Notes: generated by a model not told the origin, from the letters alone. A stretch of 64,000 nucleotides of DNA from Eubacteriales bacterium (GCA_029009055.1 JAQXJR010000035.1:6196-70195); one strand, 5' to 3'; shown: positions 30,265 through 51,940, counted from the stretch's first letter. Program-made: numbers and translations.

Positions 30265-31395
30265 TTAACACTCTTCTGAGCTGGATTTGGCGATTCCCGG
30301 CTGTGCTGTCGATTCATCTTCAGGTGCATCCGGCGCAACTTCAACAGTATCCTCAGCATCTTCTTCCGCCGGCTCTTCTGAATCAGCCTCAATGGAATGA
30401 TCCGCCTGCTCTATGAAATCCATAGCAAGCTGTTCGCCATCAGAATCATCAGATTCATCCGACAAGTCATCCTTTCCAGTTTTTTCAACTGTTTCCGCGG
30501 CGTCTGTCTTCTCAACGACCTCAACTGTTTCCGCCTCGTCAGATTTCTCAACGGTTTCCGCGGTATCATTTTTCAATTCAGCAGCATCTGAAACCGCCAC
30601 ATCCTCAGACGCGCCCTTTACCGCGCCTTCCGCGGCGTGTTCAGCGGCCTTCTTAGCCGCGGACGCCTTATCAGCCGCCATTCCGGCATAGCCGTACACA
30701 GCGTTCAACACCTTACGCCCCAGGGCGCCTCGTGAAAGCAGCTTATCATAATAATAGAAAGGCACAGAGAAGAAAACACACAGAAAAGCCCAGAAAGTAG
30801 GTCTCAGAGACAGCCTGCCAGTGCTGGCGTAAGCTAAGATTCCCAGCTGTCCGTAGACAGAATCCATATATGACTTTGCTGCAGCCGTAAATATCAAGGT
30901 CATGACGAGAAGCACGGCCGCGCTTATTGGAAACAGCAAACCTTTAAAGTAAAGCTTCCGCTTCCAAACAGAAAACAGGCTCAGGACAGCGCCCGCGACA
31001 GTCGCCAGAAATACTAGCGAAAACAGCCAGAGAGCCGCCATAGTCCCGGCAGGCATGCCGCCCCCGTAGCCATTCGTGATTTTTATCAGACTCCTGACCG
31101 CCCCGGATACCTGGAACATCTCGAAAGCCGAAAGCCCCAGATTCCGCGACGCTTTCAGGATTACGCTCACATCGCTTCCGACCTTATTCGTCGTATTGTA
31201 ATTCCCCGTGTAGAACACAGAGCCCAGGTCATCGAGCGGCATCTCAGACGCCTGCCTCATGGCATCCTTCACCAGAGAACTCATCTCGCTGTTAAGCCCT
31301 CCGATCTTCACCCACGAAAAGAGCAGCAGAACGACCGCCGCCACAGCGAACGCGACCGAAAGCATCTTAAATATTTTCAATCTCTTATCATCCAT
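30265..31395 (-). CDS. Hypothetical membrane protein with a long acidic C-terminal tail
   Basis: Start MDDKRLK at 31395 with RBS GGAGG, about 4 TM segments, and an E/D/A-rich tail with repeated ETVEK units. Confidence 0.7.
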   Translation of the reverse strand: MDDKRLKIFKMLSVAFAVAAVVLLLFSWVKIGGLNSEMSSLVKDAMRQASEMPLDDLGSVFYTGNYNTTNKVGSDVSVILKASRNLGLSAFEMFQVSGAVRSLIKITNGYGGGMPAGTMAALWLFSLVFLATVAGAVLSLFSVWKRKLYFKGLLFPISAAVLLVMTLIFTAAAKSYMDSVYGQLGILAYASTGRLSLRPTFWAFLCVFFSVPFYYYDKLLSRGALGRKVLNAVYGYAGMAADKASAAKKAAEHAAEGAVKGASEDVAVSDAAELKNDTAETVEKSDEAETVEVVEKTDAAETVEKTGKDDLSDESDDSDGEQLAMDFIEQADHSIEADSEEPAEEDAEDTVEVAPDAPEDESTAQPGIAKSSSEEC

Positions 31396-31468
31396 GACTA
31401 AACCTCCCTGAGCGTTCATTCCCCCAGCAAAGCCATTTCGCGCATGTCCCTCCGGGCCCCGGCCTTGT

Positions 31469-32977
31469 CTAAAGTTCGTAGAGCTCCGTGTACTTATTTT
31501 CCAGATAATCCAGGAAATCGTCCGGCGTGAGCTCGCGCCCCGTGATGTCACGGATCCACTCGCCCGGCGCCAGCCTGTCTGCCTTCTTAAACACATGCTC
31601 AGCCATCCAGCCGTTAATTTTCTCAAAGTCGCCATTAGCGACCGTCTCGTCTATATCCATGTCCTCCGCCATTTTATTATAATACATAGCGTTATACATG
31701 TTTCCTAAGGCGTAAGTCGGGAAATAACCGAAACCGGAAGCCCAGTGGACATCCTGAAGCACACCTTCCCGATCATTCGAAGGCCTTACGCCGAGATACT
31801 TCTCATACATATCAGCCCAGGTCTCAGGCAGACGCGTAAGGTCCGCCTCGCCCGCGACAATCCTCTTCTCCAGCTCGTAGCGTATTATTATGTGAAGCGT
31901 GTACGTGAACTCATCAGCCTCAGTCCTGATAAGGCTCGGCTCCACGACATTAAGCGCCTCATAAAGCTCCCTCTCCGACACATCATACATGGCTTCAGGG
32001 AATATGCGCTTAACATCCGGGTAAATCAGATGAACGAACGCCTCCGACCTTCCGATCCTCTTCTCATAGAACCTGGAAACAGACTCATGCTGGCCCATAG
32101 TCTTCTCCATCTGGATATGGTGGTCGAAATTCTCCGCCGGCTGCAGCTGCTCGAATAAGGCATGCCCGCCCTCATGTATGATGGAATACATGCTCGACGC
32201 GAAATCCGCCGGGTAATAATGAGTCGTCACCCGAGCGTCATCCCTGGCCAGGCCGTCCGTGAACGGGTGCTCCGTCGTCGTGAAAGCGCCCCTCTTGAAA
32301 TCGAAGCCAATCGTTCCGAGCAGGAACTCAGCCATCTCTCTTTGCTGTTCGTCCGACACGAGCCTATGCAGGAAGTCCGTGCGAATTCTCTTCTTACTAT
32401 GTGTGATTCTATCGAGCAAAGGTGTCAATCTTTCGAGGCACTTCGTGAAGATTTCGTCCAGTTTCTCTGACCGCATGCCGCGCTCATAATCGTCGAGAAG
32501 GTTATCATACACATTCGGCAAAGGCTGCTCGCGAAGCTCCACTTCGCGCAGGTTCGCGTCTCTGACCGCCTGTAGAGATGGCAGAAATACGCTGTAATCT
32601 GACACCTTCTTAGCCTCAAGCCAGTCTTCATACGCCTTATTATATACTTGCTCCAACCGGTGCTCCTCATCCGGCGTAAGGTTTTTCGTCTTTTGGCGCT
32701 CGCGGTGGAGCAGCTCCGCCAGAGTTCTGTCGAACTCGCCTAAGGAATCCCTTTGCTGGTATAAAAATTCAGCTGCCTCTATGAATTTCTCGTCCTTCTT
32801 CAGTCGGAAAGCCTGGTTAGCCAGAAATGCTATGGTCTTCCCCTGCTCGCTCATACCTCCGGTCGGACAGATAGTCTCCAGGTCGTAATTCAGCACCCTG
32901 ACAGCGTGCTCGTACGTTTCCGCCTGTTTAAGCACATCATCTACATATTTCAGATTTTCTTCAAGTAAATTATTCAT
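31469..32977 (-). CDS. Carboxypeptidase, M32 family
   Basis: HPFT, DARVTT, IIHEGGHALFEQ (HEXXH), HESVSRFYE, IRTEADE, QDVHW and GYFPTYALG. Confidence 0.93.
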   Translation of the reverse strand: MNNLLEENLKYVDDVLKQAETYEHAVRVLNYDLETICPTGGMSEQGKTIAFLANQAFRLKKDEKFIEAAEFLYQQRDSLGEFDRTLAELLHRERQKTKNLTPDEEHRLEQVYNKAYEDWLEAKKVSDYSVFLPSLQAVRDANLREVELREQPLPNVYDNLLDDYERGMRSEKLDEIFTKCLERLTPLLDRITHSKKRIRTDFLHRLVSDEQQREMAEFLLGTIGFDFKRGAFTTTEHPFTDGLARDDARVTTHYYPADFASSMYSIIHEGGHALFEQLQPAENFDHHIQMEKTMGQHESVSRFYEKRIGRSEAFVHLIYPDVKRIFPEAMYDVSERELYEALNVVEPSLIRTEADEFTYTLHIIIRYELEKRIVAGEADLTRLPETWADMYEKYLGVRPSNDREGVLQDVHWASGFGYFPTYALGNMYNAMYYNKMAEDMDIDETVANGDFEKINGWMAEHVFKKADRLAPGEWIRDITGRELTPDDFLDYLENKYTELYEL

Positions 32978-39358: not shown

Positions 39359-40066
39359 TCAGAACAGGCTCAGCTGCTCGAACTCTCGAGATCTCTTAAG
39401 CTCAGGGTCCGAAGCCGCCAAGAATTCAGCTGTGAGCTCCGGCTTGAATATCCAGTCTCGGATATTTTCCTCCGGTAAAATGAGCGGCATCCTGTCGTGG
39501 ACGGGAGCCATGCTCTCATTAGCGGCTGTTGTAAGTATAACGAATTCCTTATTAATATCAAGAAGCCCGCGACTTCCATCCTCAAATTGGCACCCGCCTT
39601 CAGAACCTGTAGGCTTTCGGCGCGGGACCAGCCTGTAGAAACCTGCCAGAAATATGGTGTGAGCCAGCTCCAGAGAGAAAGTTACCTTATTCTTCTTTGC
39701 GTCCCACTCATAAAACGTAGTGGCGGGGATGGCGCAGCGGCGCTTCTTCACGCTGTCGGAAAATGTCGGCTTATCCATGGCCGTCTCAGCTCTGGCGTTA
39801 ATAAGGAGCCTTCTGCCGGCTCCGGCCTTACCGCTTTCCCGCGAACGAGAATACACAAAATCATCCCCGCGACTGTCACCCGGCATTTCGAAGCCCCAGC
39901 GCATGTTCTCCGCTTTCAGCATGTAGCCATCGCCCGCTATGATGACGGCTTTCTCTGATGGGAAAACATCCCTATCGCCCAGCCAATCTATATCCGGATC
40001 GACCTCATCGACCACCCGCCTTATATCGTTCTCAGACTCTATGTCCATAGAATATCTGCCACACAT
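39359..40066 (-). CDS. SOS response-associated peptidase (SRAP/YedK/HMCES family)
   Basis: True start MCGRY (catalytic Cys2), MRWG, INARAET, FYEW (Glu) and HDRMP (His). The start overlaps the upstream stop (TGATG). The protein ends in EQLSLF. Confidence 0.92.
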   Translation of the reverse strand: MCGRYSMDIESENDIRRVVDEVDPDIDWLGDRDVFPSEKAVIIAGDGYMLKAENMRWGFEMPGDSRGDDFVYSRSRESGKAGAGRRLLINARAETAMDKPTFSDSVKKRRCAIPATTFYEWDAKKNKVTFSLELAHTIFLAGFYRLVPRRKPTGSEGGCQFEDGSRGLLDINKEFVILTTAANESMAPVHDRMPLILPEENIRDWIFKPELTAEFLAASDPELKRSREFEQLSLF

Positions 40067-41994
40067 CAGAATTCCTCCGTCGAAAGCCCGCTCGCGACCG
40101 GCATATGACCGAAGCCCTTTACACGCGCCCGACCATTCGCACTTATGAGCCTGCATCTATTGAGAGAAGCGTATATCTCCTGAGGCCTCACCATAGCCAG
40201 ATTCCCCGGGATCCTGCCCGAAAATACAGAAGAAAATCCCTTATCGCGGAGTTTATTCCAAGCCATGTCTATAACATCCCGATAAGCCTTTCTGCCATCT
40301 AGCTCAGGGAGAAGCCCCACAGCCAGCACGGCCAGGAGTTCTGTCTGCTCGCCGTCAACTATCTGGCTCAAAGCTCTTAGGTCTACCATGCTATGACCTA
40401 TCATGAAGCCATCACTTCCCAGGTTCTTATGCTTCACACGGTCGCCGCCGCGGCCGTGCCTTACCTCTGAAGACAAACTTCCTTTAAGCCGCCTGGAATT
40501 GAGATCCAGGTCCCGGAATTCTTCCCCGAACTTATCCACATCTTCCCCATTTTCTCTCAGCGGAACGAGTTTACGGACTTTATCCGTCACGTCATACGGT
40601 TCATACCTATCCATCTGTATGATCCTGTCTGCCTCGGCGAAAAAAGCTCCCGAGCTTCCCGCGACCAATATGGTCGATATGCCCATCTCCCTGTAGAGCC
40701 CGCGCATCTTAAGATTATACGGCTGGATCGGTTCCTGATCTCGGTTCACGATCTTTCTCATGAGGTCGTCGCAGACCATGAAATTCGTAGCGCATGTATC
40801 TTCATCCATAAGCAAGACCTTCGCCCCGGCTTCTATACTTTCGATCACGGAAGCCGCCTGGGATGTGGAGCCGCTGGCGTCCAAGCTGGAGAAGTGGCTC
40901 GTATCCCTGCCGTCAGGAAGTTCCCTGATAAATGGGGATATATCCACATCCGTTATAGACCTGCCGTCTTCCGCCCTGACCTTCATGGATGTAGGGTCTG
41001 TCATGACGAACTCTCTCCCGTCGCCCGCCACATGGTCGTAGACGCCTCGTTCCAAGGCTTCCAGTAATGTGGACTTACCGTGGTAGCCTCCGCCTATTAT
41101 GAGCGTGACACCCGGCCTTATCCCCATACCGGTGATTTTCCCCTTGTTAGGTAAAGTGAACTCCACCCGATCTTCCTCCGGCGACGTGAATAACTTAGCC
41201 CCATTCATCGGCTTCTGAGAAATGCCGCTTTCTCTAGGCAGCAAAGCCCCATCGGCCGCGAAGGCTATGAGTCCGGCCTCCCGCGTCATATCTCGCAGAG
41301 CCGTCCTGTCCTCAGCCAGTTCTATAGTTTCCCTTACTTCACTCTCCGACAGAGAATGGTAGAAAAGTGTTTTCCCCACACAATCCGGTAAGAAATCAAA
41401 GAGAATCTTCTCCAGTTCACGCGCGAGAACAGTGCGCCCCGCCGCAGGAAAGCCCACAGAAAGCCTGAAAACCATGTCTCGTGAATTCTTATCTATAGAT
41501 AGGGCACTTCTTTCAAGCACCTCCTGACCTGGGTCTGAACAGGAAACGAGGCCGCTCTTACCCGACCCCTTAGCCTCATGTGAAATCTTACCTATAGCCC
41601 TGTGAAACTTCCTTATGAGGAAATCCTCCAGAGCTGTTTTATTAGTCCTGGTATAAGGCCGTTCCGGGTCATAGAAACACCAGTCAGGAAACCCAGCCCG
41701 AGAGCCTTTAATATGAACGCTCACAGATGTTGGCGCCGCGAAAGGGTCTCCCTGGACGTGGTCTATACCTAAAACATAAGAACCGAAGTCGTAACTCCCC
41801 TGTAGGTCCTTATATGCCGGATAACCCCTGTGGTCTATCCTATACAGCATGTCGCGGAGGTCTTCCGCGCTTCCGCGCCTGCCCCTATCGGCATTAGGCG
41901 ACCCGAAACCACGGGAGCTGTTCTTATCCGGCCTCCTGCCGGATGGCCTGTTTTCTCCGCCCCTTCCACTGTAGCTTCTATTATCTCTTCTCAT
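40066..41994 (-). CDS. ABC-class ATPase domain protein (COG3044-like)
   Basis: HVQGDPFAAP, GSGKSG, Walker A GGGYHGKST, ASGSTSQAA and DEDTCATNFM. RG-rich N-terminal tail. Confidence 0.85.
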   Translation of the reverse strand: MRRDNRSYSGRGGENRPSGRRPDKNSSRGFGSPNADRGRRGSAEDLRDMLYRIDHRGYPAYKDLQGSYDFGSYVLGIDHVQGDPFAAPTSVSVHIKGSRAGFPDWCFYDPERPYTRTNKTALEDFLIRKFHRAIGKISHEAKGSGKSGLVSCSDPGQEVLERSALSIDKNSRDMVFRLSVGFPAAGRTVLARELEKILFDFLPDCVGKTLFYHSLSESEVRETIELAEDRTALRDMTREAGLIAFAADGALLPRESGISQKPMNGAKLFTSPEEDRVEFTLPNKGKITGMGIRPGVTLIIGGGYHGKSTLLEALERGVYDHVAGDGREFVMTDPTSMKVRAEDGRSITDVDISPFIRELPDGRDTSHFSSLDASGSTSQAASVIESIEAGAKVLLMDEDTCATNFMVCDDLMRKIVNRDQEPIQPYNLKMRGLYREMGISTILVAGSSGAFFAEADRIIQMDRYEPYDVTDKVRKLVPLRENGEDVDKFGEEFRDLDLNSRRLKGSLSSEVRHGRGGDRVKHKNLGSDGFMIGHSMVDLRALSQIVDGEQTELLAVLAVGLLPELDGRKAYRDVIDMAWNKLRDKGFSSVFSGRIPGNLAMVRPQEIYASLNRCRLISANGRARVKGFGHMPVASGLSTEEF

Positions 41995-42001
41995 TACATC
42001 C

Positions 42002-42451
42002 TCATTTCAATGGTATATCGCTGTAGTTCATGCAATAAGCCGCGAGCACCAGATTTCCACCTTTATCCAGATAGAATCTCAACTGCGAGTCCCTCTGAGC
42101 GCTGTCCGACCCTTCCGGCATTTCGTACATGAGGACTGTTTCAGCCTCTTCCAGCACTTCTGTATCCTCCATGTTGTTGGCCTTCCCGTTTATATAAACG
42201 CGGTCAGAGACGGGATCGAAAGGTTCCGGCTTTGCTGTGTCATCCCCATACGCTTCCTCTATGTCGGAAAGTGAGGCAGGAAAGGTAATGCCCCGCCTGG
42301 TCATGAAATCATCGCCGGAAACGAATGTCACGAAACCGCTCTTATAGCCTTGTTTCTCCAGGAGCGTAAGCACGTTCCCCGTTTTAATGGCCTGAGTCAC
42401 GGGATTATCCCCTGAAACCGCGAAATCAGACCTTCTTATCTCTTTATCCAT
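42002..42451 (-). CDS. Hypothetical protein
   Basis: 149-aa ORF in operon context with genome-typical codon usage and an RBS-like GGGGAT. Confidence 0.6.
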   Translation of the reverse strand: MDKEIRRSDFAVSGDNPVTQAIKTGNVLTLLEKQGYKSGFVTFVSGDDFMTRRGITFPASLSDIEEAYGDDTAKPEPFDPVSDRVYINGKANNMEDTEVLEEAETVLMYEMPEGSDSAQRDSQLRFYLDKGGNLVLAAYCMNYSDIPLK

Positions 42452-47666: not shown

Positions 47667-48593
47667 TTATAGGGGCTCAGGCCCCATGACTTCTTCCAGC
47701 TCGCCGTCTTCTCGATAAAAGAGCTTCATGCGGAACTTACCGCCTTCGCCCATTACAGTCGGTATGAATTTCCTATCGCCCTCCCACATAGGGATGGAAT
47801 CGAAATCTTCTTTCCTGATCCAGGCCAGGTCACCCTCATCGCACTCTATGAGGCTGCCCGAATATTCTTTGCTGAGGAAAACGTACATCCTCTCGTAATG
47901 ATCGCCCATATAGAAATCTATGACGCCTCGGTATTCCAGGCTGTCTAGGGTAAGGCCCGTCTCTTCCATAACCTCGCGGCGGATGGAATCCTCGGGAGTC
48001 TCGCCCGCCTCCATGTGGCCGCCGACTCCTATCCACTTACCCTCATTCGGGTCGTCCTTCTTCTTAGTCCTGTGGAGCATGAGCCAGTTCTCCCCATCGC
48101 CTATGTAGCACATGACGGTCTGGCTTCTATGGAGCCTAGCGAATAAGCCGGATACAGCCTCGTCTATATCGTTATACGCTGTCTCGAAGTCTCGGGTATA
48201 CCATGGGTCGGCTATATACTTTCCCTTATTCTCTCCCCGGCAGTAGTCAGATAAAAGTCTGATTTTCCTCTGGGGATCGCCGCCGAGTTTTCTCTCCAGG
48301 TGGATAAGGTTTTCCTCATCCATGGCCAGTATGATATCGAAGTCCTCATAATCCCGCCTGGTGAAAAGCCGAGCCCAGTGGTTTCCCAGAGGGACCCCCT
48401 TCTCGGCCAGCTTTCTCTTTGCTGGGGGATAGATGGGATTGCCTATCTCTTCCGTCGTCATGGCGGCTGAATCCACCTCGAACAGGGAATCTTCCCCGGC
48501 CCTGCTCAATTTATCCCGCAAAATGTATTCTGCCATCACGCTTCTGCAGATGTTGCCGTGGCAGACGAATAAGATTTTTATCACTTTTCTCAT
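47667..48593 (-). CDS. Fusion of low-molecular-weight protein-tyrosine phosphatase and MutT-like Nudix hydrolase
   Basis: N-terminal P-loop CHGNICRS and DPWY, then a C-terminal Nudix box GGHMEAGETPEDSIRREVMEETGL, in one uninterrupted frame. Confidence 0.88.
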   Translation of the reverse strand: MRKVIKILFVCHGNICRSVMAEYILRDKLSRAGEDSLFEVDSAAMTTEEIGNPIYPPAKRKLAEKGVPLGNHWARLFTRRDYEDFDIILAMDEENLIHLERKLGGDPQRKIRLLSDYCRGENKGKYIADPWYTRDFETAYNDIDEAVSGLFARLHRSQTVMCYIGDGENWLMLHRTKKKDDPNEGKWIGVGGHMEAGETPEDSIRREVMEETGLTLDSLEYRGVIDFYMGDHYERMYVFLSKEYSGSLIECDEGDLAWIRKEDFDSIPMWEGDRKFIPTVMGEGGKFRMKLFYREDGELEEVMGPEPL

Positions 48594-48634: not shown

Positions 48635-49960
48635 TTATCTCTTCTTCGAACCCTGTTTCAGATTCACCTCTTTTTCTTTATACCAAGAAATTGAAGAAAT
48701 CACCTCTTCACTGTCTAAGTTGTAATCTTCGAGATCGGACAGATGAATGGCATCTATTATCTCACGTTCTGGAAAACGATCCCTCACATAAGTAAGCGGC
48801 ACCTGGTCCGGAACGATCCCATAAAGCCCTGTGCCTTTAAAACGTTCCAAAATTTCAGCTGCATCGGCCAGATAAACCGGATAAGTTCCCTCCCTGCAAA
48901 TGGTATTGAAAAAACGCACAACCTCATGCGTACGATATTTCCCATTTAAGAACAAATGGAACTTTCCATTTTTATCCAGGTAGACGTCAAAGCTTACATG
49001 GGTTGCATTGCCACCCGGGATAACTTCCCAGGGATGCGAGCCGTTAAATTCCTGTAATTCTCCGGAAAACCACCGCCGAAGTTCCTCTTCCGAATCCGAC
49101 CGGATTTTTGAAAGGCCATCATCCCTACTATCGGAAAGCCGGCGATACAGGTCCACATCATTCATGAAAGAATCATACCGTTCCGGATATGCTTCCCGGT
49201 ATCCCAGCCGGCAGAGTCTGAAAAATTCTCGGCTCGTAAAATGGGGAATTGCGTTTTCATCTTCGGAAAGCATATTAGCGGTATTTTTTTCAAAATCAGC
49301 GATCTCTTCTTCTGACAATCCGTCACGATCATATTCACAAAATTCCGGAACTAACTTCCAAAGCATCTCCCGTGGCATCGTGCCTGTTCTGTATTTAAAA
49401 GGCAACTTCTTCTCAATATCGGAATTATATGTGCCATCTTTCAGCTTCCTTACAGTTTCTTCCACCCGATCCAGGGAATAACGCAGGTACTCTATATAAT
49501 AAGATTCCACATTTTCATACACCTTATCTTCACGCGGATCAAAACGAAGGAACGCCGTGTCCCTGCCGTTATTTACAAGAAAAGCCATATAGCCTTCCTC
49601 TGTCGTGGAAAATGCGCAGTGATACCAGCAGTTGTCGTCCGGGTAATAATACTCCCATAGGTCTTCGTACTCATCCCTGGTTTTTATTTCATCATATTCC
49701 TGTGCGTCTTCCCATGTCTCCCAGTTTTCAATCGGGCCCCTCGGAATCACAATCCATACACATGGATTCGAATTTTGGTCATGATCGATCTTATCAAAAA
49801 TCTGCTGAAGCTCACGCAAAAGATCAACTTCCTGTGAAGTAAGAACCGGAGTGCCATTTGGTTGACGATTTACACCGGTCCTTAGAATCAGCTGATCATA
49901 TTCGGGGGCACACGTAATAGTATTCGTCATTTGTTCATTTAATTTTTCCCCATATGTCAT
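48635..49960 (-). CDS. Hypothetical protein of unknown family (acidic, aromatic-rich) in a lower-GC segment
   Basis: 441-aa ORF with RBS AAGGAG. Codon usage is visibly more AT-rich than in the flanking genes. No recognisable motif. Confidence 0.75.
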   Translation of the reverse strand: MTYGEKLNEQMTNTITCAPEYDQLILRTGVNRQPNGTPVLTSQEVDLLRELQQIFDKIDHDQNSNPCVWIVIPRGPIENWETWEDAQEYDEIKTRDEYEDLWEYYYPDDNCWYHCAFSTTEEGYMAFLVNNGRDTAFLRFDPREDKVYENVESYYIEYLRYSLDRVEETVRKLKDGTYNSDIEKKLPFKYRTGTMPREMLWKLVPEFCEYDRDGLSEEEIADFEKNTANMLSEDENAIPHFTSREFFRLCRLGYREAYPERYDSFMNDVDLYRRLSDSRDDGLSKIRSDSEEELRRWFSGELQEFNGSHPWEVIPGGNATHVSFDVYLDKNGKFHLFLNGKYRTHEVVRFFNTICREGTYPVYLADAAEILERFKGTGLYGIVPDQVPLTYVRDRFPEREIIDAIHLSDLEDYNLDSEEVISSISWYKEKEVNLKQGSKKR

Positions 49961-50407
49961 AGCTGGTCTCCTTATATAACTTTTTTAACTATTTTAAGAT
50001 TACCTGCATCTGTAGATACCAGCAAAAATTTTATCGTAGCACGTCTAATTTCGCAGCGGAACATTTCATCGTATTCATGGTCTTCATGCAACTACTCATA
50101 CCTTCTAATATCCCCGAATAGTTTACCAACTGTTAGTATGAAAACGCATTGTTCTGAAATTCTACATTTGTACCAAAACGCATTGTTTTCCGAATCATTT
50201 TGCGCTATTCGCAGAGAGGAAATGCATCGTGAACACATGGTGACAGTTGGCGAACCGTTTACGACAATTCGCGCTCCTGTCCCTCTGAAAACTTTACATA
50301 CATTTGAAAAAGCCTGTTCGGGTATAATGATACACTTACTTTACAGTAACCTGTTTTTCAAGTTTCTCCGATGGCTGTCGAGAATATACAGGCAGCAGTT
50401 AAACCAA

Positions 50408-51940
50408 ATGAATAGCAGACCACAGCGTAATACCTATTATAAACCTTCCATTGCCGGGCAGATCCTCCCAATGCTCGTCGCGTTTGTTTTTGTCTTATTC
50501 TTTTCTCTGCCCATGATCGAAACAGTAAACGCAAAGCAATTTCAAGGCACTATCATAAAACAAAGTGCCGTAGAATGGCATAATACCGGTAAAGATGACG
50601 ACTCTAAATCCTACTATACGCAGGATGATATCGTCCGAGTAGAGATGGGACATGGTGATTCGATCGAGGTGAGAATCGAAGCCAGAGAAGATAATGAGTC
50701 AAAACTTCCGCAGATGGGTGACACAGTGACTGTTATGCGTTCTCATCAGCTTATCTCGAACAGTGAGGTCTGGCGATTCGGCACTGTAAAAAAAAGAAGC
50801 TCCAATTATATCCTGGGAATCGTTATTCCGGCAGCAATTGCTGTGATATTCTTTCTACGCCTGCTCTCTGTTATCCGTATTCGCAGAAAGATCGATCAGA
50901 TGAATCAAACCGGTTTTATTCCTTACAGGCAGCCTCAGGAATATCGGGAAGATCAGGAATGCAAACCCTTTTCCACGCCTGCAGCCAACCGCATCATGCT
51001 TTCCCGCGACTTTCTTCTGGAGCAGCTGAAGAATAAAAGAAAGCAGTTAAGGATGGTATTCTGTGTCACTGCCGTTATCCTCGCAGCAGATGTCTTATCC
51101 GGCATTCTGGGCAGCCTGCATATATTTATCATTCTGATCTGTATCGCCACAATGTCAGTCTGTACTTTGCAAATTAAAAACGCCTTATATGAATACACCC
51201 TGGTTCGTAATGGGAATTTTAAAATCGTCGAAGATGTCATCACATGGAAGAGGATCGTGGAAGGCACAGACAGTGATGGCGCTACTACCTACCGCAACGT
51301 AATTCATGGAGAGTTCTCCGGTTCACAAACCATTTTCGACAAAAATATTTACCGAAACTGCACTCCGGGGCAGAAGCTCTATGTTGTCTGTCTGATCAAA
51401 CCTGTTATGGATACGGATCTCCATCAGTTTTATGGCTTGTCTGATAGCCGGAATAGATTTGAAAAGTTCAGGCTATACTCTAAAAGTATAATATCTGGAA
51501 AAAGAAACGTCATTGGCTGTTATCCGGAAGGCGTCTACGAGCTCGCTCCGGATCTCGAGCCTTATACAGAGCGTCCGGCTGCCGGAATGGAAATTCCCTA
51601 TGATTATGACAGCTCAGGCGCTATTAATGAAGAAAGAATCCACGGTGATCCTGAAACTACTGAAGCACCATCCCACGGCAATAGCAATACAACGGCGATT
51701 CTAGCCTTGATTGGCCTGGTTCCGGGAATCGTTTTACTTGCATTCGGGACCACCCTGGAATTGAAAGCCCGTGATCTCATTCCCAACAGTGGAAACCCCA
51801 CCTACCATGGTGGAGCCGTTATTTTTCTTGCCTGGGGCGGTATTCAGAGTCTGGTCTTTCTTATTCTCATGCTGGTATCAGCCATTCAAAATAAACACCG
51901 CAGAAAATCGCAGCAGAAAAATCAGACTAACAACTGGTAA
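50408..51940 (+). CDS. Hypothetical multi-module membrane protein
   Basis: Probable start MNSRPQ at 50408 (TATAAT at 50321-50326 lies inside the longer ORF). TM hairpins alternate with soluble beta-rich domains. Confidence 0.65.
   Translation: MNSRPQRNTYYKPSIAGQILPMLVAFVFVLFFSLPMIETVNAKQFQGTIIKQSAVEWHNTGKDDDSKSYYTQDDIVRVEMGHGDSIEVRIEAREDNESKLPQMGDTVTVMRSHQLISNSEVWRFGTVKKRSSNYILGIVIPAAIAVIFFLRLLSVIRIRRKIDQMNQTGFIPYRQPQEYREDQECKPFSTPAANRIMLSRDFLLEQLKNKRKQLRMVFCVTAVILAADVLSGILGSLHIFIILICIATMSVCTLQIKNALYEYTLVRNGNFKIVEDVITWKRIVEGTDSDGATTYRNVIHGEFSGSQTIFDKNIYRNCTPGQKLYVVCLIKPVMDTDLHQFYGLSDSRNRFEKFRLYSKSIISGKRNVIGCYPEGVYELAPDLEPYTERPAAGMEIPYDYDSSGAINEERIHGDPETTEAPSHGNSNTTAILALIGLVPGIVLLAFGTTLELKARDLIPNSGNPTYHGGAVIFLAWGGIQSLVFLILMLVSAIQNKHRRKSQQKNQTNNW

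Follow-up and report, generated by a model that had tools for sequence, protein, structure and literature searches.

How does a bacterial enzyme that shields the abasic sites of single-stranded DNA (ssDNA) find its way to the replication fork? Proteins of the SRAP family (SOS-response-associated peptidase, the HMCES-YedK family) are universal, and to our knowledge the human member alone has a known way of reaching the fork, the bacterial model protein YedK having none. The question is raised by a gene in a 64,000-nucleotide stretch of DNA from a Eubacteriales bacterium of the gut, one of the Clostridia (GCA_029009055.1 JAQXJR010000035.1:6196-70195), here called the window, in which positions 39359..40066 (-) encode a 235-amino-acid, short-form SRAP protein ending in QLSLF, a candidate binding motif for the bacterial sliding clamp (the beta-clamp, DnaN). 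We consider it probable, at roughly 0.7, that tailed short-form SRAPs such as this one are abasic-site shields tethered to the DnaN clamp, a convergent counterpart of the link between human HMCES and PCNA. Such a protein would join an enzyme family and a motif class that are each known but whose combination has yet to be described; searching of full texts turned up no work that links a bacterial SRAP with the sliding clamp.

The window gene encodes an SRAP-family protein with intact catalytic residues. Its product matches the Pfam SRAP profile, PF02586, with an E value of 9.7e-35 (a score of 120.5 bits where the cutoff is 27.1), and a PDB sequence search with it found BT_1218, YedK and HMCES. 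An AlphaFold2 model built from 138 homologues had a mean predicted local distance difference test score (pLDDT) of 89.2 and a predicted template modeling score (pTM) of 0.85; when its fold was searched against the PDB, all 21 of 21 significant matches were SRAP structures, with template modeling (TM) scores of 0.61-0.70 and a probability of 1.00. The best structural match was YedK crosslinked to abasic DNA (6NUA; E 4e-13, TM 0.66), and the HMCES structures 5ko9, 6oov and 6oea gave TM scores of 0.67-0.70.

The translation begins with MCGRYSMD and ends with KRSREFEQLSLF (REFEQLSLF), followed directly by a TGA stop codon at 39359-39361 (-). Met1-Cys2 occupies 40061..40066 (-), with the Cys2 codon at 40061-40063; by the role of its counterpart in YedK, Cys2 would be the N-terminal nucleophile, exposed after Met removal, that forms the thiazolidine crosslink. 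Asn90, in INARAE (39797..39799, (-)), is the equivalent of YedK Asn75; Glu120, in FYEW (39707..39709, (-)), that of Glu105, the general acid/base; and His190, in VHDRMP (39497..39499, (-)), that of His160. The roles of Cys2, Asn75, Glu105 and His160 are taken from YedK biochemistry (PMC9436759). Across an alignment of 138 representatives with 36-56% identity to the window SRAP (alignment A1), M1, C2 and E120 are invariant, H190 is found in 137 of 138 and N90 in at least 90%. The original prediction, made from the sequence alone, had called this gene an SRAP/HMCES protein, had read Cys2, the Glu of FYEW and the His of HDRMP as intact, and had placed an E-Q-L-S-L-F-stop ending at 39362-39376; the Pfam match and the uniformly SRAP-like fold, the codon-level reading and the translation, respectively, agree with it on each count. 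We infer that the short form is catalytically competent, with abasic-site crosslinking predicted by homology to YedK and HMCES.

The gene model itself seems secure. We place the start at the ATG at 40066 because the resulting N-terminus is the Met-Cys that the enzyme requires, a Shine-Dalgarno sequence (GGAGG, 40074..40078, (-)) lies 7 nucleotides before it, within the 3′ end of the upstream gene, and the ATG overlaps the stop of that gene in TGATG. An in-frame ATG at 40156 was rejected as a start; that stretch sits within the upstream gene. Metagenome contigs from sheep and bovine gut span the SRAP gene, tail included, with zero differences, and the gene is therefore not an assembly artefact. 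In the one run of raw reads examined, none fell on the gene. One further contig (P0002, from ENA, 32.8 kb) encodes a protein 95-97% identical that matches residues 1-174 only and ends in SSQLNSWRLRTLSLRDLESSSS; this end is a reading of the alternative frame at 39370-39585 (-) of the window, and it therefore reflects a frameshift in that assembly that removes His190 and the tail; the sheep and bovine contigs lack this frameshift.

The window SRAP is a divergent member of its clade, with no more than 45% identity to any species representative. It carries two lineage-specific insertions. The first, a surface loop at 39821..39880 (-) (residues 63-82, GDSRGDDFVYSRSRESGKAG), falls in alignment columns with less than 30% occupancy and is missing from all 15 other sequences of a 16-sequence alignment (A2); its residues 68-76 have pLDDT values below 50. 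The second, a hairpin loop at 39551..39628 (-), lies within residues 147-172 and has a block pLDDT of 68-70.

What sets the protein apart is its C-terminus. The match to PF02586 covers profile positions 1-182 of 214, the last ~32 being absent, which defines the short form, and at the extreme C-terminus stands QLSLF (39362..39376, (-)), directly preceded by Phe229-Glu230 (39377..39382, (-)), a conserved [YF]-E flank. Clamp-binding motifs are defined as a pentapeptide, Q-phi-x-L-F, with the consensus QL[S/D]LF, or as a hexapeptide, Q-phi-x-L-x-L (bioRxiv 10.64898/2026.05.27.728225); the consensus is the one on which the original prediction had relied. The same study gives QLSLF as the motif of Bacillus subtilis PolC, with a dissociation constant (Kd) of 3.1 uM on B. 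subtilis DnaN. The window tail thus matches the clamp consensus and is identical to the PolC motif.

The tail is widely conserved. In the 120 nearest 90%-identity clusters, [YF]EQ[LMQI][STRK][LF]F stands at the end of about 85% (EQMSLF in 32, EQLSLF in 25, EQLTLF in 8, EQMRLF in 7 and EQQSLF in 5), and most of the remaining clusters have the motif followed by a few extra residues. Searched exhaustively with HMMER, 1.84 billion representatives clustered at 50% identity gave 11,113 matches at E<=1e-3, of which the best 150 were examined; 142 of these were new relative to the first search, and they sample the outer edge of the tailed clade rather than map it. Within their last 25 residues, 82 of the 142 have the strict motif Q[LMIQVF]x[LFM]F, and most others have hexapeptide-like forms such as QLSLPL, QLTLDF, QQRLPF and QLSLDLF.

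Position by position, the 138-representative alignment tells the same story. The motif Gln (Q231) is present in 133 of 136 sequences and carries 4.09 bits, compared with 4.26 bits for the catalytic His. Position 2 is L, Q, M or I and position 3 is S, T or R; position 4 is L in 102 sequences and F in 22; position 5 is F in 86, D in 17 and P in 8, with D and P marking hexapeptide forms. The flank is conserved too (Y in 98 and F in 13 of 135; E in 108 of 136), and the stretch before the motif, residues 217-227, has 0.7-1.3 bits at most positions, with higher values at L223 and at prolines 220-221. A genome scan with alignment A2 yielded 80 species-representative genomes, in which the tails are of the pentapeptide class (Q[LMQI]x[LF]F) in 61, hexapeptide-like (QLxLx[LF]) in 13 and neither in 6. 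A single protein family therefore shows both clamp-motif classes at the same position. The original prediction had counted a motif not conserved among orthologues as one of two results that would speak against it; with Q231 in 133 of 136 sequences and the motif in 74 of the 80 species genomes, the motif has proved to be conserved.

Conservation of this kind reflects selection on the peptide, because synonymous codons vary widely at conserved positions: we counted 45 distinct 21-nucleotide coding versions of the 7-codon motif, in which Gln and Phe are each written with both of their codons, Leu with five and Ser with six. It is also specific to SRAP genes. The strict motif falls in the last 25 residues of 59 of 76 SRAP open reading frames (ORFs), compared with 2 of 577 neighbouring ORFs, one of which is a Y-family polymerase; in the window, where 157 six-frame open segments are 100 amino acids or longer, the SRAP gene is the only one that ends in the motif. 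Across homologues the motif lies at the C-terminus or a few residues from it, as is typical of linear motifs. In the model, mean pLDDT is 69 over the last 5 residues and 92 over the preceding 10 (221-230), values that give block-level confidence only and no coordinates. Comparative data strongly support the predicted tether, because the tail matches the consensus, is conserved down to 36% identity and occurs in both motif classes; the assignment of the conserved tail as a clamp-binding motif, by sequence class, is likewise supported.

In two of the species-representative genomes (L053, SRAP from 2299, and L092, SRAP from 4001) an amber codon stands where QQSLF has its first Gln; the SRAP ORF there finishes in ...EYE-TAG-QSLF..., and the remainder of the motif can be read past the stop. 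These are either two separate CAG-to-TAG losses of exactly the tail or strain or assembly variants.

The tail is not a property of SRAP proteins at large. Nearly all of the 80 genomes belong to Lachnospiraceae (Acetatifactor, Blautia, Dorea, Butyrivibrio, Roseburia, Mediterraneibacter, Faecalicatena, Lacrimispora and Hungatella), with a few other Bacillota (Solobacterium and Bacilliculturomica), and an SRAP on a Subdoligranulum (Oscillospiraceae) plasmid ends in ..TDGQLRLW. Long-form SRAPs lack the motif and end in a VNSPxNNxPELIE-type segment; this holds for SPbeta YoqW, YedK, BT_1218 and the SRAP domain of HMCES, and the plasmid-borne long forms of Rhodococcus, Paenibacillus and Methylomonas have the same type of end and no Qxx[LF]F tail. 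Among short forms, an Enterococcus plasmid SRAP stops at ..MPELTRTEVAK and an SRAP on a Listeria-phage contig at ..MPELVMEKV, exactly where the proteins of Clostridia add their 8-residue tail. The survey of bacterial SRAP C-termini that the original prediction had proposed thus gives a divided answer: the tail is near-universal in the Lachnospiraceae clade and missing from the long forms and from the Enterococcus and Listeria-phage proteins. Judged from the sequences compared, it is a clade-specific add-on to a truncated SRAP domain, found in Lachnospiraceae and some Oscillospiraceae, and no general bacterial feature.

A phage origin of the tailed SRAP was considered and rejected. A scan of IMG/VR viral contigs found 15 SRAP loci, none of which aligned through the tail, and YoqW and the Listeria-phage protein have no tail. 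An unverified phage contig from human faeces (L014, 2082-2678) encodes a short-form SRAP ending in ..TDGQMSFGDLL; this end, a more diverged form of the tail, resembles the ..TDGQLRLW of the Subdoligranulum plasmid protein. An abundant 192-amino-acid tailed SRAP is found on a conjugative element (L006-L008, the P0007 clade; EQLSLF in P0007 and EQMSLF in most close relatives), with genes for a relaxase, a NikA-like protein, RepA_N, a DprA-like protein (DNA_processg_A) and SLFN/AlbA_2 as neighbours. Two tailed copies on separate contigs were seen in Faecalicatena contorta ET51, isolate A85_79 and Lachnospiraceae 62-26 (L025/L029, L055/L065 and L063/L085).

How might such a protein work? By homology to YedK and HMCES, Met1 would be removed and Cys2, aided by Glu120 and His190, would attack an abasic site of ssDNA in its aldehyde form; the product would be a covalent thiazolidine DNA-protein crosslink that guards the site from strand scission and error-prone bypass. 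The SRAP domain lacks its canonical last ~30 residues and has in their stead the 8-residue tail ending in QLSLF, which we propose acts as a short linear motif inserting in the hydrophobic cleft of DnaN, subsite I taking Leu-Phe and subsite II the Gln. The enzyme would thereby be held on the clamp face that looks toward the primer 3′ end. Tethering may concentrate SRAP at primer-template junctions and forks, where a stalled polymerase leaves an abasic site in ssDNA beside the clamp. DnaN, being a dimer, offers two clefts and could hold SRAP together with a polymerase, and frequent pairing with a Y-family polymerase suggests that shielding and translesion synthesis may be two clamp-bound options for the same lesion.

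This pairing came from the gene context of relatives. When all ORFs within 4 kb of SRAP were clustered for the 80 loci, the dominant neighbour was a Y-family polymerase (PolY; IMS, IMS_C and IMS_HHH), present in 30 of 80 and always on the same strand. In the 27 loci where its position was measurable it lay downstream in 22 and upstream in 5, and at less than 500 bp in 20. Most of these adjacent polymerases have an internal Q[LM]x[LM]F (QLDLF, QLDMF, QMVLF, QLSLF and others) about 60 residues from the C-terminus, following the little-finger domain, and they provide an in-clade positive control for clamp motifs. An ORF of ~104 amino acids, with no Pfam match at E<=0.01, occurs at 17 loci; where such a locus also has the polymerase, the ORF sits directly downstream of it. 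We regard its product as a candidate for an uncharacterised PolY accessory subunit. Example coordinates, from the set L016-L095, are 4708-5976 in L060 and 4196-4510 in L024.

Exact GAAC-N4-GTTC (LexA/Cheo) boxes are found just upstream of several of the polymerase genes (L026 4696, L037 2341, L081 1918, L083 944, L087 1597 and others). There are 14 exact boxes in 582 kb, 8 of them at or near PolY genes. Where the order is PolY, ~104-amino-acid ORF, SRAP, a box upstream of PolY would put SRAP in an SOS-controlled unit. An association of SRAP with UmuC was described by Aravind et al. 2013, whose main text makes no mention of the clamp or PCNA, and a 2026 survey (PMC12926913), in which no clamp motif is mentioned, proposes SRAP-like proteins as PolY-associated subunits; the pairing in Lachnospiraceae extends both. 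A long-form SRAP gene of Methylomonas is also adjoined, in its case by umuD and a Y-family polymerase. At 9 of the 80 loci (L036, L043, L055, L057, L063, L065, L071, L073 and L085) the gene directly upstream of SRAP encodes a calcineurin-like phosphoesterase (Metallophos); in L001-L004 a Metallophos gene is also found upstream of SRAP, two genes away and separated from it by a His_Phos_1 gene.

The window itself has a different setting. By tblastn it has no Y-family polymerase in its 64 kb; it holds no exact GAAC-N4-GTTC box, and its one-mismatch matches, 24 observed versus 20.5 expected, are at chance level. SOS (LexA) control of the window SRAP was accordingly rejected. Both negatives had been part of the original prediction. 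The lack of a LexA box near the gene stands; the lack of umuC/dinB nearby is true of the window and atypical of its relatives, 30 of 80 of which have an adjacent polymerase.

The same context gives rise to the first of the alternatives to be weighed, in which the tail does bind the clamp and serves mainly a regulatory end: SRAP would occupy the DnaN cleft and compete with PolY, or hand over to it, and so gate translesion synthesis. A polymerase with its own clamp motif on the same strand beside a tailed SRAP, often within 500 bp, is what such a role would lead one to expect, as are LexA boxes directly upstream of several PolY genes, and HMCES is reported to inhibit mutagenic translesion synthesis (PMC9436759). 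However, 50 of the 80 loci, and the window, lack an adjacent polymerase yet retain the tail, and the catalytic residues are fully conserved, so that enzyme activity must also be under selection. A mainly regulatory role seems to us rather unlikely, and it is a variant of the tethered-shield reading.

Several observations weigh against the tethered shield. The conserved [YF]-E flank lies outside the described clamp motif and could mean a different or additional partner. The strand at residues 224-227 is modelled confidently on the domain, so that perhaps only ~5-8 residues stand free, possibly restricting access to the cleft. At position 3 the tail has S, T, R or K and not the Asp that binds most tightly in fluorescence polarization assays, and QLSLF itself is only a low-micromolar ligand of B. 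subtilis DnaN. Pfam profile positions 183-214 are absent, and the crosslinking activity of the short form is thus assumed. No RNA evidence of expression for the window SRAP was found in the RNA runs searched.

Some of these points lend themselves to a second alternative, in which the tail either binds a partner other than DnaN, such as PolY or the ~104-amino-acid ORF product, or packs on the SRAP domain in place of the missing C-terminal segment. The flank outside the consensus, the loss of the last ~32 profile positions and the proposal that SRAP-like proteins are PolY-associated subunits (PMC12926913) are all in its favor. Yet pentapeptide and hexapeptide tails alike conform to the clamp consensus, and the tail is retained where there is no PolY nearby. 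Packing in particular sits poorly with the trailing residues and variable spacing tolerated after the motif and with the fall of pLDDT to 69 at the motif; the short-form Enterococcus and Listeria-phage SRAPs stop before it, so the fold needs no tail. We consider either version of this alternative improbable, on a par with a mainly regulatory tail.

A hydrophobic C-terminus might instead be a degradation tag, by which a protease could clear away the protein or the crosslink it forms with DNA. Crosslinks between SRAP and DNA have to be resolved at some point, and hydrophobic C-terminal tails can act as degrons. An invariant Gln together with alternation between Qxx[LF]F and QxxLx[LF] is, however, a clamp-motif signature unlike known degrons, and motifs with up to ~10 trailing residues would fail as a terminal tag; we find this explanation very unlikely. 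A chance match without function is hardly credible: one five-residue match at a single C-terminus would be weak evidence alone, but ~75-90% of more than 300 sampled homologues conserve the motif, down to 36% identity and with synonymous codon turnover, against a background of 2 in 577 neighbouring ORFs.

If the SRAPs of this large clade of gut Firmicutes are indeed tethered to DnaN, clamp coupling would be a recurrent solution and no eukaryotic peculiarity, and a new enzyme class would be added to the beta-clamp interactome. An 8-residue tail, with PolY often adjacent, would also offer a simple bacterial system in which to study the choice between shielding and translesion synthesis at a stalled polymerase. 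One can go further, though here we are tentative and incline against rather than for: bacterial tethering (Qxx[LF]F to DnaN) and eukaryotic tethering (HMCES to PCNA) may have arisen independently; tailed SRAP, SOS-controlled PolY and the ~104-amino-acid protein of Lachnospiraceae may form a clamp-centred module that settles, at stalled primer ends, whether an abasic site is shielded without error or bypassed with mutation; and the conjugative copies may protect incoming ssDNA.

In the window, the only close gene link of SRAP is to the gene upstream (40066..41994, (-); 642 amino acids, with ABC_N, ABC_ATPase and MRB1590_C domains), whose TGA overlaps the SRAP ATG by 1 nucleotide. No promoter- or terminator-like site was found between the two genes, and co-transcription with translational coupling is likely. 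This ABC_ATPase/MRB1590-like gene was rejected as a conserved operon partner; it is not a recurrent neighbour in the 80 loci. The other neighbours in the window are ordinary chromosomal genes (TauE, SDF symporter, M20 peptidase, MatE, EamA and others), and dnaN is absent from the window. Elsewhere in it, 47667-48593 (-) encodes a 308-amino-acid fusion of LMWPc (low-molecular-weight phosphotyrosine phosphatase) and NUDIX domains, and four ORFs have no Pfam match at E<=0.001: 48635-49960 (-), 441 amino acids; 50138-51940 (+), 600 amino acids; 30265-31635 (-), 456 amino acids; and 42002-42451 (-), 149 amino acids.

Set beside known systems, the tailed SRAPs resemble two groups of proteins. With the established clamp partners (PolC, QLSLF; Pol Y1, QLDLF; Pol Y2, QLNLF; MutS, QLSFF; bioRxiv 10.64898/2026.05.27.728225) they share identical or near-identical pentapeptides, and the SRAP variants QLSFF, QMSLF and QLTLF fall within the experimentally binding range; unlike the SRAP clade, none of those partners is an SRAP enzyme, and the [YF]-E flank is not described in them. 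Among SRAPs, the Enterococcus and Listeria-phage short forms share the short architecture of ~190-196 amino acids, and their alignment to the window SRAP reaches residue 223-226, but they lack the [YF]EQxx[LF]F tail of the Clostridia proteins. SPbeta YoqW and other long-form bacterial SRAPs belong to the same family and are often linked to a Y-family polymerase or umuD, without a Qxx[LF]F tail. Escherichia coli YedK (6NUA, 2ICU) shares the active-site residues and is the best structural match, whereas its identity to the window SRAP is ~21% and it is a long form in which the canonical C-terminal segment (...HPVSRAVGNVKNQGAELIQ..) is retained and a clamp motif is lacking, in line with the original prediction, which knew of no described clamp tether for YedK.

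The closest functional parallel is human HMCES, which binds PCNA, moves along with forks and crosslinks abasic sites where ssDNA meets dsDNA at a junction with a free 3′ end; a tethered window SRAP would share this geometry. The binding to PCNA is reportedly through a PCNA-interacting peptide (PIP) box, as described by Mohni et al. 2019. Like the window SRAP, HMCES has the SRAP fold, the catalytic Cys2, Glu and His and, C-terminal to the catalytic domain, an element for clamp interaction, a candidate one in the window protein. The differences lie in how that element is built: in HMCES the clamp is PCNA and the extension is long and disordered, whereas the window protein has an 8-residue tail with a candidate DnaN motif on a truncated domain. 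The SRAP domain of HMCES shares with long-form bacterial SRAPs the C-terminal segment that the window SRAP is missing, and the window tail, a bacterial Qxx[LF]F, is not homologous to the PIP region of HMCES, so that the likeness is by analogy only. The resemblance between HMCES and the window SRAP is convergent, not inherited.

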